Of a stretch of 64,000 bases of DNA, positions 31,359 to 34,311 are shown one piece after another. Made by a program: the position numbers and the translations under genes. The stretch is from Vicinamibacterales bacterium (GTDB lineage: Bacteria; Acidobacteriota; Vicinamibacteria; Vicinamibacterales; 2-12-FULL-66-21), in assembly GCA_036556425.1 (NCBI GenBank), contig DATBJJ010000002.1, positions 1,521 through 65,520 of the forward strand. The letters run 5' to 3'. The stretch's first letter is position 1; every line of letters begins with the position of its first letter. The notes under the pieces are model-generated. The model was not told the DNA's origin. It saw nothing but the letters and a program-made list of their open reading frames with translations, and did no database searches.

Positions 31359-32177
31359 ATGCTCAAAGCTGCGACGTTGTCGGTGATTGTTCTCGCCGGT
31401 GCGGCGGCCGCGCCGGCGTTCGCGCAAACGGCGCCCGATCAGTACAAGCCGACGGTCGGACAGCCGGGAAAAGACGCCGTGTGGGTTCCGACGTCGCCGG
31501 CGCTCGTCGAGAAGATGCTCGACATGGCGAAGGTGACGGCGTCGGACTTCGTGATGGATCTCGGCTCGGGCGACGGACGCAACGTCATCGCCGCCGCGAA
31601 GCGCGGCGCGCGCGGGGTGGGCGTCGAGTACAACCCGGATCTCGTCGTGTACTCGAACCGCATCGCGGAGAAGGAAGGCGTCGCCGACAAGGCGAAGTTC
31701 GTGCAGGGCGATATGTACGCGGCGGACATCTCGAAAGCATCGGTGCTCGCGCTGTTCTTGTTGACGGAGAACCTCGATCGGCTGGTGCCGAAGTTCCTCG
31801 ATCTTCGTCCGGGCACGCGCATCGTCGCCAACACGTTCGGCATCACGGGATGGACGCCCGACGAGACGCAACAGCTCGAGCACGATTGCACGAACTGGTG
31901 CACGTCGCTCTTGTGGATCGTGCCGGCGAAAGTGCAGGGAGCGTGGACGGTGCCCAACACCGGCGAGCTGTCGCTGAAGCAGGAATTCCAGATGGTGACG
32001 GGCACGCTGACGATCGGCGGCGCGGCGAAATCGATCAGCAACGCCCGCCTGCGCGGCGATCAGATTCGATTCACCGCCGACGGCGCGGACTACGAAGGAC
32101 GCGTGAACGGCAAGGCTATCGAAGGAACGGTCACGAAGAACGGCGCGACCAGCAAGTGGACAGCGATGAAGAAGTGA
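31359..32177 (+). CDS. Class I SAM-dependent methyltransferase-like protein with N-terminal signal peptide
   Basis: MLKAATLSVIVLAGAAAAPAFAQ, then motif I VMDLGSGDGR and VGVEYNPD. An extra ~90-aa C-terminal beta-rich domain. Confidence 0.7.
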   Translation: MLKAATLSVIVLAGAAAAPAFAQTAPDQYKPTVGQPGKDAVWVPTSPALVEKMLDMAKVTASDFVMDLGSGDGRNVIAAAKRGARGVGVEYNPDLVVYSNRIAEKEGVADKAKFVQGDMYAADISKASVLALFLLTENLDRLVPKFLDLRPGTRIVANTFGITGWTPDETQQLEHDCTNWCTSLLWIVPAKVQGAWTVPNTGELSLKQEFQMVTGTLTIGGAAKSISNARLRGDQIRFTADGADYEGRVNGKAIEGTVTKNGATSKWTAMKK

Positions 32178-32338
32178 GTCGGCAGTCGTCAGTCGACAGT
32201 CGTCAGTCGCAGTCGGTAGTCGCAGTCGGCAGTCGACAGTCGCGCTGTGATACGATCGCACTTCGTGTTGCGACTCTCGACCGTCGACTGTGACTGTCGA
32301 CTCCGACTGTCGATCGACGACTAGCGACTGTCGACTGC
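32177..32338. repeat. Heptamer-array inverted repeat, GACTNNC family (locus R3)
   Basis: Left arm agtcggc agtcgtc agtcgac ..., right arm gcgactctcgaccgtcgactgtgactgtcgact... It starts at the methyltransferase stop codon and ends 7 nt before the tRNA. Confidence 0.9.
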
Positions 32339-32345
32339 AACGTGT

Positions 32346-32419
32346 GCGCCCGTAGCTCAGTTGGATAGAGCGCCGGCCTTCGAAGCCGTAGGTCGGGGGT
32401 TCGAATCCCTCCGGGCGCG
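32346..32419 (+). tRNA. tRNA-Arg (anticodon TCG)
   Basis: Hand-folded cloverleaf: acceptor gcgcccg/cgggcgc, D-arm gctc-agttggata-gagc, anticodon arm ccggc-cTTCGaa-gccgt, T-arm ggggg-ttcgaat-ccctc. 74 nt, no encoded CCA. Confidence 0.85.
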
Positions 32420-32630
32420 CTTTATTATCCGGGGGGCTTCGCCCCGCCGGACCTCCTACACGCGCGCTGCGCTCGTTCGTGTGAACGGGCGCTTCCTCCC
32501 TCGCATTCCCTGATCTCCTCCTCGACGTAAGGTTCGTCGACCGCTGCGATCCACCAGCGCGGCCGTTCACTATTGTCGATCTCGTCGACGGTCGATCGAC
32601 GTATGAATAGAACTTAGAGAGGAGTGTCTC

Positions 32631-34013
32631 GTGTCACACGCAACGTCATCACTTTTGATTCCAACGCTCCGCGCGGAGCTCAACGGCAGCGTGATCGCGC
32701 CGGGGGATAGCGGGTACGACAACGCTCGAACGATCTTCTTGGGTGGATTCGATGTTCGCCCGGCCGTGATCGTCCGGCCGAACGACGCGGCAGGCGTCGC
32801 GCGCGTGATTGCGCTCGCGCGCGAGACGGGCCTTCCGCTCGCCGTCAGGAGCGGGGGCCACAGCGGCGCGGGCTACAGCACCGTCGAAGACGGCATTATG
32901 CTCGACGTGCGCGGCCTCAGAGCGCTCGACGTCGACGCGAAAGCACGAACGGCGTGGGCGGGATCGGGCCTGACGGCCGGCGAGTACTCGCGAGCCGTCG
33001 GCGAGCAGGGTCTCGCGACGGGCTTCGGCGACACCGGCTCCGTCGGCCTCGGCGGCATCACGCTCGGCGGCGGAATTGGATACCTCACGCGCAAGCATGG
33101 AATGACGATCGACAGCGTCCTCGCCGCGGAGCTCGTGACGGCCGCGGGCGGCGTGATTCACGTGGACGACGCATCGCATCCCGATCTCTTCTGGGCGATC
33201 CGCGGAGGCGGCGGCAACTTCGGCGTCGTCACGCGCTTCAAGTACCGCCTGCATCCCGTCGATCGCGTGGTCGGAGGCATGCTGCTGTTGCCGGCGACGC
33301 CGGAGGTGATCGTCGGAATCATCGATCGTGCGTGGGAAGCGCCGGAAGAGTTGTCGCTCATCGCGAACGTCATGCCGGCGCCGCCGATGCCGTTCGTCCC
33401 GCAGGAGCATCATGGGCGTCTGTCCGTCATGATCCTTTTGTGCTACGCCGGCGACGAAGAGTCGGGCGCGCGCGCGGTCGCGCCGCTGCGCTCGCTCGCA
33501 GCGCCAATCGTCGACATGGTCCGGCCAATCCGCTATCCGGAAATGTTTCCGCCCGACGATCCGTCGTACCATCCGGCCGCGATCTCGCGGACGATGTTCA
33601 TCGATCGCGTCGATCGGCCGACGGCGGAGACGATCGTGGGCTATTTGCAGCGATCCGATGCGAGCATGCGCGTCGCGCAGCTGCGCGTGCTCGGCGGCGC
33701 GATGGCGCGCGTCCCGCCGGACGCGACGGCATTCGCTCACCGGCAGAGTCGAATTCTCGTGAACGTCGCCGCGTTCTACGAGGGTCCCGATCGTCCGATG
33801 CGCGAAGCGTGGGTTGCCGAGTTCTCCAAGGCGCTGAACCAAGGAGACGATGGCGCGTACGTCAGCTTCCTCGGAGATGAAGGCGATGCGCGCGTGCGCG
33901 CCGCGTATCCGGGCGCGACGTGGTCACGGCTCGCCGCGGTGAAGGCGAAATACGATCCAGCGAACGTGTTCAGCAGAACCCATAATGTGCTCCCGTCAGT
34001 CGACAGTCGTTAG
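32631..34013 (+). CDS. FAD-linked oxidase (PCMH-type FAD-binding domain + BBE-like C-terminus)
   Basis: GTG start with AGAGGAG upstream. VIVRPNDAAGVARVIALARETGLPLAVRSGGHSGAGYS, and C-terminal KAKYDPANVFSRTHNV. The last codons run into repeat R4. Confidence 0.85.
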   Translation: MSHATSSLLIPTLRAELNGSVIAPGDSGYDNARTIFLGGFDVRPAVIVRPNDAAGVARVIALARETGLPLAVRSGGHSGAGYSTVEDGIMLDVRGLRALDVDAKARTAWAGSGLTAGEYSRAVGEQGLATGFGDTGSVGLGGITLGGGIGYLTRKHGMTIDSVLAAELVTAAGGVIHVDDASHPDLFWAIRGGGGNFGVVTRFKYRLHPVDRVVGGMLLLPATPEVIVGIIDRAWEAPEELSLIANVMPAPPMPFVPQEHHGRLSVMILLCYAGDEESGARAVAPLRSLAAPIVDMVRPIRYPEMFPPDDPSYHPAAISRTMFIDRVDRPTAETIVGYLQRSDASMRVAQLRVLGGAMARVPPDATAFAHRQSRILVNVAAFYEGPDRPMREAWVAEFSKALNQGDDGAYVSFLGDEGDARVRAAYPGATWSRLAAVKAKYDPANVFSRTHNVLPSVDSR

Positions 34014-34233
34014 TCGGCAGTCGAGAGTCACAGTCGACAGTCACAGTCGATCGTCGACAGTCGGAATCGAGGTCGAGCGATTCGTGTTAGGATTAGGGTT
34101 TCGATTCCGCCGTCGTTTGAGACTGTCGACTCTCGACTCTCGACTGAGACTTTCGACTGTCGACTCTCGACTGCGACTTTCGACTGTGACTCTCGACTGC
34201 GACTCTCGACTGCCGACTACCGACTGCCGACTG
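33995..34233. repeat. Heptamer-array inverted repeat, GACTNNC family (locus R4)
   Basis: Left arm cagtcgacagtcgttagtcggcagtcgagagtcacagtcgac..., right arm gactgtcgactctcgactctcgactgagactttcgactgtcgact... It ends 4 nt before the tRNA. Confidence 0.9.
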
Positions 34234-34237
34234 TTAT

Positions 34238-34311
34238 GCGCCCGTAGCTCAATTGGATAGAGCGTCGGCCTCCGGAGCCGAAGGTTGCAGGTTCGAGCCC
34301 TGCCGGGCGCG
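34238..34311 (+). tRNA. tRNA-Arg (anticodon CCG)
   Basis: Hand-folded cloverleaf: acceptor gcgcccg/cgggcgc, anticodon arm tcggc-cTCCGga-gccga, T-arm gcagg-ttcgagc-cctgc. 74 nt. Followed by hairpin cgaggg-gcttcga-ccctcg. Confidence 0.85.

Follow-up and report, generated by a model that had tools for sequence, protein, structure and literature searches.

A stretch of 64,000 nucleotides from a Vicinamibacterales bacterium (contig DATBJJ010000002.1), referred to below as the window, contains two tRNA genes that were found by ARAGORN and Rfam, tRNA-Arg(TCG) and tRNA-Arg(CCG), and each of them is preceded by two inverted arrays of a short tandem repeat with the core AGTCG. Here we address the origin and possible role of these two structures, which are termed R3 and R4. 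The features of the two loci, in order along the window, are:

31359–32177, plus strand: methyltransferase gene (Pfam Methyltransf_25/31), the TGA stop codon of which (32175–32177) runs into the first unit of the R3 left arm.
32177–32242, plus strand: R3 left arm, approximately 10 units of AGTCGNC (6–7 nt) identified by Tandem Repeats Finder (TRF), a repeat finder and unit parsing; lies upstream of the predicted tRNA promoter.
32243–32270, plus strand: R3 loop of 28 nt, with an extended −10 box TGaTACGAT (32248–32256) and the promoter-proximal part of the predicted leader; identical in strain L001.
32271–32337, plus strand: R3 right arm of CGACTNN units, an insertion within the tRNA 5′ leader relative to array-less loci.
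32346–32420, plus strand: tRNA-Arg(TCG), no encoded CCA (ARAGORN, end 32419/20; Rfam RF00005, 71.1 bits).
32421–32463, plus strand: trailer after tRNA-Arg(TCG), with a T-rich stretch, a UUCG-loop hairpin (ccggggggcttcgccccgccgg) and then acctCCTACACGC.
32631–34013, plus strand: gene for a FAD-binding, BBE-like oxidase (Pfam FAD_binding_4 and BBE; homologues P0001–P0120), with an alternative start at 32655.
33997–34063, plus strand: R4 left arm, approximately 9 units of AGTCGNN, overlapping the oxidase stop and upstream of the predicted promoter; identical in L001 and L002.
34064–34120, plus strand: R4 loop of 57 nt, with an extended −10 box TGtTAGGAT (34085–34093) followed by GGTTTCG.
34121–34234, plus strand: R4 right arm, approximately 16 units of CGACTNN, longer than the left arm; a predicted 5′ leader of ~135 nt and the site of indels between strains.
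34238–34311, plus strand: tRNA-Arg(CCG), no encoded CCA (Rfam RF00005, 70.5 bits; ARAGORN gives 34237–34312).
34313–34360, plus strand: trailer after tRNA-Arg(CCG), with a second copy of the hairpin (cgaggggcttcgaccctcg) and the CCCCTACACGCTCTCTCGC repeat.

The methyltransferase call is that of a 272-aa gene on L001, a contig from the same species, and was placed on the window by offset. The oxidase corresponds to an open reading frame (ORF) of 460 aa for which an exact look-up returned no match, and a 452-aa gene call was used in its place. The two tRNA genes are 79% identical and have identical acceptor stems.

An earlier note on this DNA had remarked on how closely the arrays are packed between their neighbours, and the coordinates bear this out. 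Arrays are found directly 5′ of both tRNA-Arg genes, at 32177–32337 and 33997–34234, and stop 4–8 nt short of the tRNAs (7–8 nt, caacgtgt, for R3 and 4 nt, ttat, for R4), gaps that exclude by space a conventional promoter between array and tRNA. They also begin at or inside the stop region of the upstream coding sequence, since the methyltransferase TGA ends at 32177 and the oxidase ORF ends at 34013, within R4. The C-terminus of the oxidase (..PSVDSR*, the last 5–6 codons) is encoded by R4 array units; the orthologue on the related contig L003 ends ..PSAG*.

Both structures have a period of 7, with 9.7–16.9 copies by TRF, and unit parsing resolves each unit into AGTCG and one or two variable bases. 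The arms of R3 and R4 are complementary at 74–90% of positions (TRF, repeat finder), and the inverted repeats I2, I4 and I7 returned by the repeat finder for the window are pairs of arrays on opposite strands. In R4 the arms are of unequal length, 67 and 114 nt. When folded as RNA, the complete structures give long imperfect hairpins that are far more stable than shuffled sequences (z = −9.3 for R3 and −10.7 for R4). Folds of the predicted leader together with tRNA and trailer were barely better than shuffles (z = −2.45 at the TCG locus, 32263–32450, and −1.72 at the CCG locus, 34100–34340), and the right arms by themselves are without convincing RNA structure. Strand bias of the fold energy, used as a test for an RNA hairpin, was inconsistent, with R3 slightly favouring the plus strand and R4 the minus strand. 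Rfam searches at the gathering threshold and at E ≤ 1 returned the two tRNAs only, plus chance miRNA-like matches on the hairpin. As a separate observation on layout, all 13 pairs of AGTCG-family arrays that we inspected (three in the window and those of L005, L022, L045, L050, L064, L076, L089, L095, L105 and L108) read 5′-AGTCG array, loop, CGACT array-3′, and the reverse order was never seen.

Related loci were collected as homologues of the oxidase, drawn from soil metagenomes, and by a metagenome scan for exact copies of either tRNA, which gave 29 further loci from which upstream regions were extracted. The sequence TGNTANNAT is the extended −10 consensus of sigma-70 promoters. It has exactly two matches on the two strands of the 64-kb window, at 32248–32256 and 34085–34093, one per hairpin loop and both on the tRNA strand. 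Each has TGn and TAnnnT at a suitable distance and is conserved among orthologues. Array-less orthologues have identical tRNAs and an extended −10 box, TGnTAnnAT, 10–27 nt 5′ of the tRNA. In L003, for example, tRNA-Arg(CCG) lies 32 nt past the oxidase stop with no array (...tgacgccggtcgcTGTGCTAGCATtgaaGTTTCgt, then GCGCCC) and the box is directly upstream (gTGcTAGCATtgaaGTTTCgt abutting the tRNA); it is upstream of the tRNA much as in L003 on L151, L004 and L128 also.

In an alignment (A1) of six sequences, namely the loops of R4 in the window, L129 and L149 and the DNA next to the tRNA in three array-less loci (L003, L151 and L004), GTGnTAnnAT-N4-GTTT is invariant throughout. The 17-nt CCG-type motif, for which 0.00 matches are expected in the window, has one there. 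The R3 loop (gTGaTACGATcgcacTTCGTgtt) aligns with the GGTATGATcgggaTTCGTtca region, a TATGAT promoter region, found 5′ of array-less tRNA-Arg(TCG) in L126, L136, L144, L146 and L150, and it can be seen from the alignment with array-less TCG loci that the R3 right arm is a single clean insertion between promoter region and tRNA. More widely, TGnTAnnnT occurs within 70 nt upstream of 9/31 distinct tRNA genes of related loci, where 0.013 is expected per region, most of the remaining genes having TATGAT or TGnnATAAAA-type boxes instead. Since the loops are conserved among related loci, we infer that they are the native promoter cores of the tRNA genes. The earlier note had proposed a promoter inside or upstream of the array with the 160–240-nt hairpin transcribed as the 5′ leader; a predicted promoter is indeed found within the structure, in its loop, but it is the right arm alone, and not the whole hairpin, that is predicted to form the leader. 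Among 10 further paired arrays, from other genomes, none has a promoter box in its loop, and the placement of a promoter in the loop is therefore not general to paired arrays.

These observations lead us to conclude that R3 and R4 are probably hypermutable intergenic heptamer repeats with the core AGTCG that grew passively around native tRNA-Arg promoters. Most likely the arrays are by-products of replication slippage that the cell tolerates, and are not required for tRNA expression. In this lineage the repeats would have filled all unconstrained DNA around both native promoters, with the left arm taking the space from the upstream stop codon to the promoter, where it would have overwritten the last oxidase codons, and the right arm sitting within the tRNA 5′ leader. 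The sole unique sequence left would be the loop, comprising the ancestral promoter core TGnTAnnAT and the first transcribed bases. RNA polymerase would start inside the loop, near 32263 and near 34100, and the primary transcript would then carry only the right arm, as a weakly structured leader of ~80 nt (R3) or ~135 nt (R4) that RNase P would cut away at the mature tRNA 5′ end. Because it is discarded, the tRNA leader would be a permissive site for such growth. The full hairpin could form only as a DNA cruciform or in read-through RNA from the upstream gene. An intermediate state is provided by L153, which has the box, five right-arm units and the tRNA, no left arm, and a divergent upstream gene.

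The position of the left arms also bears on a different explanation, in which selection favours the paired arrays because they serve as an insulator, a terminator or a processing element separating the upstream gene from the tRNA. According to this explanation a read-through hairpin of ~60 bp after the stop codon would halt polymerase, serve as a substrate for RNase III or, in the manner of repetitive extragenic palindromic (REP) elements, shield the mRNA 3′ end left by RNase P. Left arms do lie within 8 nt of a co-directional stop codon, twice in the window and in L129, L145 and L149, while L153, the sole locus with a divergent upstream gene, is without one; the complete hairpins are of high stability (z of about −9 to −11), and arrays in Xanthomonas likewise hug the upstream ORF, at 28 nt on average according to Rehm et al. 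(2015, PMC4692102). On the other hand, a U-tract is absent after the hairpins, R4 folds better on the minus strand and has no plus-strand RNA signature, its arms are unequal (67 and 114 nt) with strain indels that are uncompensated, orthologues manage without any array, and the informative loci number only about four. We consider selection for such a function unlikely, and it would in any case be compatible with passive growth of the repeats. A plain intrinsic terminator was rejected as a candidate: 4–8 mixed bases with no T-run separate array from tRNA, and the sole match of a terminator scan is inside the tRNA T-arm.

Passive growth of a hypermutable repeat is consistent with the variation seen between relatives, which takes the form both of unit-number polymorphism among close relatives and of presence or absence between species. 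L001 and L002 are of the same species as the window (100% identical oxidase), both arrays are present in them, and all three are identical in flanks, loops, tRNAs and trailers except for one G in a G-run. Within the R4 right arm, L001 has an additional 14 nt (two units) and L002 has 27 fewer aligned bases at the same place, neither change being compensated in the opposite arm, and the R3 left arm differs between the window and L001 at two variable positions. Unit-number indels are also found among L129, L145 and L149. The nearest other relative, L003 (oxidase 82% and LigD 88% identical), is array-less, as are L004 and L154 (72–73% identical).

Copy number that differs between strains, together with a −10 box at the centre of both loops, could alternatively suggest a cruciform promoter switch, in which supercoil-driven extrusion exposes or hides the −10 box and unit number tunes or phase-varies the supply of tRNA-Arg. 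The presence of same-family arrays at tRNA-Arg(CCG) in the L129 group, L150 and L153, and the one exclusive order of arms in pairs, would also fit. We nevertheless regard a switch of this kind as quite improbable: the loops of the 10 other paired arrays lack a promoter box, L153 and L150 are one-armed, array-less relatives retain the same promoter, and imperfect stems (74–90%) with unequal arms disfavour extrusion. If the arrays are not passive, they may, together with the promoter in the loop, act as a supercoil-sensitive cruciform or as a read-through RNA hairpin, with the number of units tuning or phase-varying how much tRNA-Arg(CCG) and tRNA-Arg(TCG) is supplied. We hold this broader proposal to be improbable; if true, it would account for an array family that is kept or re-acquired 5′ of tRNA-Arg(CCG) in several soil lineages.

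The nature of the loops bears equally on whether R3 and R4 might be miniature mobile elements, of the type of MITEs (miniature transposable elements with inverted repeats) or of REPINs, inserted 5′ of the tRNAs. Their inverted-repeat form, multiple dispersed copies and patchy distribution among relatives are what such an element would display. However, the internal sequence is in each case the native tRNA promoter of the target locus and not borne by an element, the arms consist of 7-nt units in tandem that vary in number and give unequal lengths, one-armed intermediates exist, and neither flanking target-site duplications nor conserved termini were found. Insertion of a MITE was rejected on these grounds, and we consider mobile-element insertion in general extremely unlikely. 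A CRISPR reading was also rejected. A CRISPR array consists of repeats of 23–50 nt split by unique spacers of similar length; the units here are of 6–7 nt and contiguous, and there is no Rfam CRISPR match above threshold.

We next consider whether the arrays are linked to tRNA genes. The window contains six array loci, of which three belong to the AGTCG family. The third member of this family serves as a control, showing that the family is not tRNA-specific:

15780–16061, no strand assigned: R2, third AGTCG-family hairpin array, between two minus-strand genes and with no tRNA.

Four of the six loci begin at the stop of a co-directional upstream gene and end just short of the signals of the next gene. 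With a rough gene model giving ~30 intergenic gaps, ~6 of which carry an array (about one in five), the probability that both of the window's two tRNAs are array-preceded by chance is roughly 0.01–0.04, a post hoc value that is only nominally unusual. When 185,579 species genomes were scanned for runs of four AGTCGNN units, the matches listed included loci in Acidobacteriota, Gemmatimonadales, Chloroflexota, Cyanobacteria, Bacteroidota, Planctomycetes, Xanthomonas and others. Of the listed loci, 0/120 have a tRNA immediately downstream of the array and 3/120 have one within 250 nt on its wrong side, and a general link between arrays and tRNAs was accordingly rejected. A rough ORF-based census of orientation, in which AGTCG-sense arrays start ~5 nt past stop codons, was not relied on, as this result is partly trivial because the units contain stop codons.

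A different picture is obtained for tRNA-Arg(CCG), and it is here that passive growth meets its main difficulties. Comparison of related genomes, which the earlier note had proposed as a check, did reveal an association: outside the window, an AGTCG-family array ends 2–4 nt 5′ of tRNA-Arg(CCG) in 3/11 independent contexts. These are the L129/L145/L149 group, L150 and L153, where the upstream neighbours differ, being a co-directional gene ending ...ALRYE*, a tandem tRNA and a divergent gene. The array of L150 is one-sided, of opposite orientation and 4 nt before tRNA-Arg(CCG), itself the second gene of a tandem pair with the TCG gene. The 190 kb of these loci contain only two AGTCG-family arrays at other positions. 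In this independent, tRNA-anchored sample, the link of the array to tRNA-Arg(CCG) is not a matter of chance. It exceeds neutral scatter and could have selection or a site-specific cause behind it, and may be either inherited, with an old leader array lost in L003, L151 and L004, or recurrent. For tRNA-Arg(TCG), the L133/L135/L140 group has a different heptamer array (GAAGATC) upstream of the promoter and L139 has none.

Further points also count against passive growth as the whole explanation. The order AGTCG-then-CGACT is exclusive, in 10/10 pairs elsewhere and 3/3 in the window, and simple slippage does not explain this. Evidence from the source genome covers 64 kb and a part of its tRNAs. 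The predicted promoters are assigned by their match to a consensus and by conservation, and were recognised only by comparison of orthologues: there is no good −35 hexamer 16–18 nt from the −10 box at either locus, and a generic sigma-70 scan of 31900–34600 that needs both hexamers returned no promoter. The same data make for a weak case that the array itself might supply promoter function, as the earlier note had suggested. The left arms contain TCGACA, which matches TTGACA at five of six positions and is misspaced, at 12 nt (R3) or 28 nt (R4) from the −10 box, with TCGGCA at 19 nt; array-less orthologues keep the same −10 box, and the two-hexamer scan is negative.

Identical acceptor stems, a common repeat family and layout, and similar trailers had led to the suggestion that the unit of array, tRNA and trailer was duplicated as a module. 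Comparison of the two loci does not support this: the arms of R3 and R4 are 81–85% alike, no more than either is to those of the tRNA-free R2 (73–87%), and this is the level that any two arrays of one unit family give. The loops hold different, isoacceptor-specific promoter regions. The string ttcgtgtt is present in both spacers, as had been noted, but the R3 copy lies 3′ of the −10 box and the R4 copy shares bases with the TG of its box, and because their positions relative to the box differ the two copies are not homologous. The tRNAs, 79% identical, are exact matches of the old TCG and CCG genes of many relatives, the nearest relative L003 has an identical CCG gene without an array, and the TCG and CCG genes form a tandem pair in L150, L131, L134, L141 and L127. 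LigD and a 2Fe-2S ferredoxin-like gene stay linked to the tRNA-Arg genes across lineages, whereas the upstream side varies. The window arrangement looks like an old tandem pair split by rearrangement and not like a recent duplication, and duplication of the module appears very unlikely.

The trailers, too, are similar as stated: the hairpin GGGGCTTCGNCCC followed by CCTACACGC comes after both tRNAs, and the hairpin motif is found nowhere else in the window. As a sign of duplication, however, this similarity loses its force. The trailers (T-rich stretch, GGGGCTTCGCCCC hairpin, CCCCTACACGCTCTCTCGC...) align with the tRNA-Arg trailers of L003, L131, L136, L141, L144 and L153, and in L154 the trailer repeat is also found away from tRNAs, in both orientations. 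To judge from these alignments, the trailers are copies of a clade-wide dispersed repeat. This repeat of ~90 nt (TTATCCGAGGGGCTTCGCCCCTCGGACTCCCCTACACGCTCTCTCGCTCGCCGCTTCGCC..GCTCGCTCCGTTCGCGTGGCTCGC) is found 3′ of tRNA-Arg genes without encoded CCA and also elsewhere, its sites including 32421–32463 and 34313–34360 of the window, the trailers of L136, L144 and L153, and positions 2545–2640, ~2660–2720, ~3900–3990 (minus strand) and 7800–7916 of L154. Rfam gave no match for it, and a terminator, a REP-like element and an integration scar are all possible identities. A second element of ~110 nt, conserved and strongly structured (ccaaccttcgctcacg...cgtgagctacggttggcaagccacgcgaaggtt...ggccgggcgcgcca; fold z = −5.6), is found at 11305–11432 (minus strand) of L150 and 3′ of tRNA-Arg in L129, L145, L151 and L131, and is absent from the window. 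Its position is between tRNA-Arg genes or 3′ of them, its end resembles the acceptor 3′ end of a tRNA, CCA included, and it has no Rfam match either.

R3 and R4 belong to a known class of paired intergenic heptamer simple sequence repeats (SSRs), in which the unit and the host group are new. Heptamers are over-represented among long bacterial SSRs, according to a 2007 survey cited by MacGregor (2015, PMC4679880) and by Rehm et al. (2015, PMC4692102). The latter describes GGGAATC arrays in Xanthomonas that are 89–93% intergenic and on average 28 nt from the upstream ORF, that differ in length between species, and that form 70–75 convergent pairs per genome capable of adopting stem-loops or cruciforms. 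The arrays described here share with these the 7-nt unit with a conserved core and variable positions, the intergenic position hard against the upstream ORF (the first base of R3 is the final base of the stop codon, and R4 covers the last 5–6 codons), unit number that varies between related genomes, and the convergent arrangement of two arrays of one unit, AGTCG then CGACT. Unlike in Xanthomonas, the host has a GC content of 66% and is rich in ADOP permeases, which points to a soil bacterium from the Acidobacteriota or a Gemmatimonadota-like group, and the pair brackets a predicted tRNA promoter with one arm in the tRNA leader; the accessible part of PMC4692102 gives no occurrence of the term tRNA. 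In addition, the G-quadruplex repeats GGGAATC and GGGGAYT of Xanthomonas and Nostoc have G-tracts of at least 3 per unit, whereas AGTCGNN and CGACTNN have none, and AGTCGNN is therefore without G-quadruplex potential.

Heptamer repeats are also found in cyanobacteria (Calothrix, Nostoc, Microcystis) and, as TAACTGA, in marine Beggiatoaceae (MacGregor, 2015, PMC4679880). These too are direct repeats, overwhelmingly intergenic and patchy across phyla, and they often stop a few nucleotides short of the next gene or extend into the 3′ part of the preceding ORF (PMC4679880). The AGTCGNN pattern itself matches cyanobacterial genomes, among the matches listed. Cyanobacterial and Beggiatoaceae arrays are mostly of 2–6 units, one-sided, AT-rich and 5′ of start codons, with a single inverted pair reported for the Beggiatoa genome (PMC4679880); those described here have 9–19 units and are paired. 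We found no paper on such arrays in Acidobacteria, in Gemmatimonadetes or in tRNA leaders, which is not proof of novelty.

Ordinary bacterial tRNA precursors share with the two loci a predicted promoter, a dispensable leader that is removed by RNase P, the tRNA and a trailer hairpin. They differ in that the predicted leader is here a heptamer repeat of 80–135 nt, compared with 10–27 nt from box to tRNA in array-less relatives. REP and REPIN elements are, like R3 and R4, dispersed extragenic DNA that can form hairpins and is placed after stop codons. They are mobilised by RAYT transposases, and roles in termination, mRNA stabilisation and supercoiling have been proposed. REPs are discrete palindromes of 20–40 nt with conserved GTAG or CGTC heads that are copied as units, whereas the arms here are tandem arrays with a variable number of units and the loops are locus-specific. 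R3 and R4 were on this basis rejected as REP or REPIN elements.

If the boxes in the loops are promoters, the arrays suggest that a hypervariable repeat of more than 100 nt can be accommodated in tRNA leaders. The unique sequence that is spared would mark functional signals (in the present case the extended −10 promoter, the stop codon and the 5′ end of the tRNA), and heptamer hairpins, which are common in soil bacteria, may accordingly be of use for promoter annotation in genomes of uncultured Acidobacteriota or Gemmatimonadota-like bacteria. That arrays recur at tRNA-Arg(CCG), in a small sample, may reflect ancestry, a mutational hotspot or selection. For annotation the arrays are also a hazard, as they rewrite protein C-termini and as unit number differs between independent assemblies of near-identical strains.

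Several other observations were made in passing. The flank of tRNA-Arg(CCG) is a hotspot for rearrangement or insertion: relative to L003 (1661–1886), the window (34410–35801) has two extra minus-strand genes between the tRNA and the ferredoxin-like and LigD genes, which encode a 142-aa protein without a Pfam match and an FkbM-family methyltransferase. In L003, where the tRNA-Arg(CCG) copy has an encoded CCA, the tRNA is followed by a 46-nt insert (1661–1706), the last part of which repeats the tRNA 3′ end (ccgggcgcg); the usual trailer comes next, and the insert resembles the leftover of integration or excision at the tRNA 3′ end.

Arrays of other units are also present in the window. Octamer hairpin arrays (CAAGGTGC; units CA(A/G)GGTGC and GCACC(C/T)TG) with the same layout as the AGTCG arrays are found at 5551–5740 and 39678–39891, one of them in a divergent promoter region and the other between co-directional genes. 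At 42035–42119 the whole spacer is made up of two one-sided heptamer arrays, CGGGACC ×4 and then CTGACAG ×7, starting right after a stop codon and ending 11 nt before the next ATG. In the stretches 5750–5830 and 5831–8073, genes for a BlaI-like repressor and a BlaR1-family sensor are preceded by a TTGACT-17-TAATGT promoter inside a long palindrome (ACTACAactgtcgtcaa...ttgacgacacTTGTAGT) that is a likely operator. Finally, three ADOP-family duplicated permease genes were confirmed, at 51751–54243, 55274–57985 and 57987–60449, and a fourth large ORF, with no family assigned, is listed at 12409–14916.

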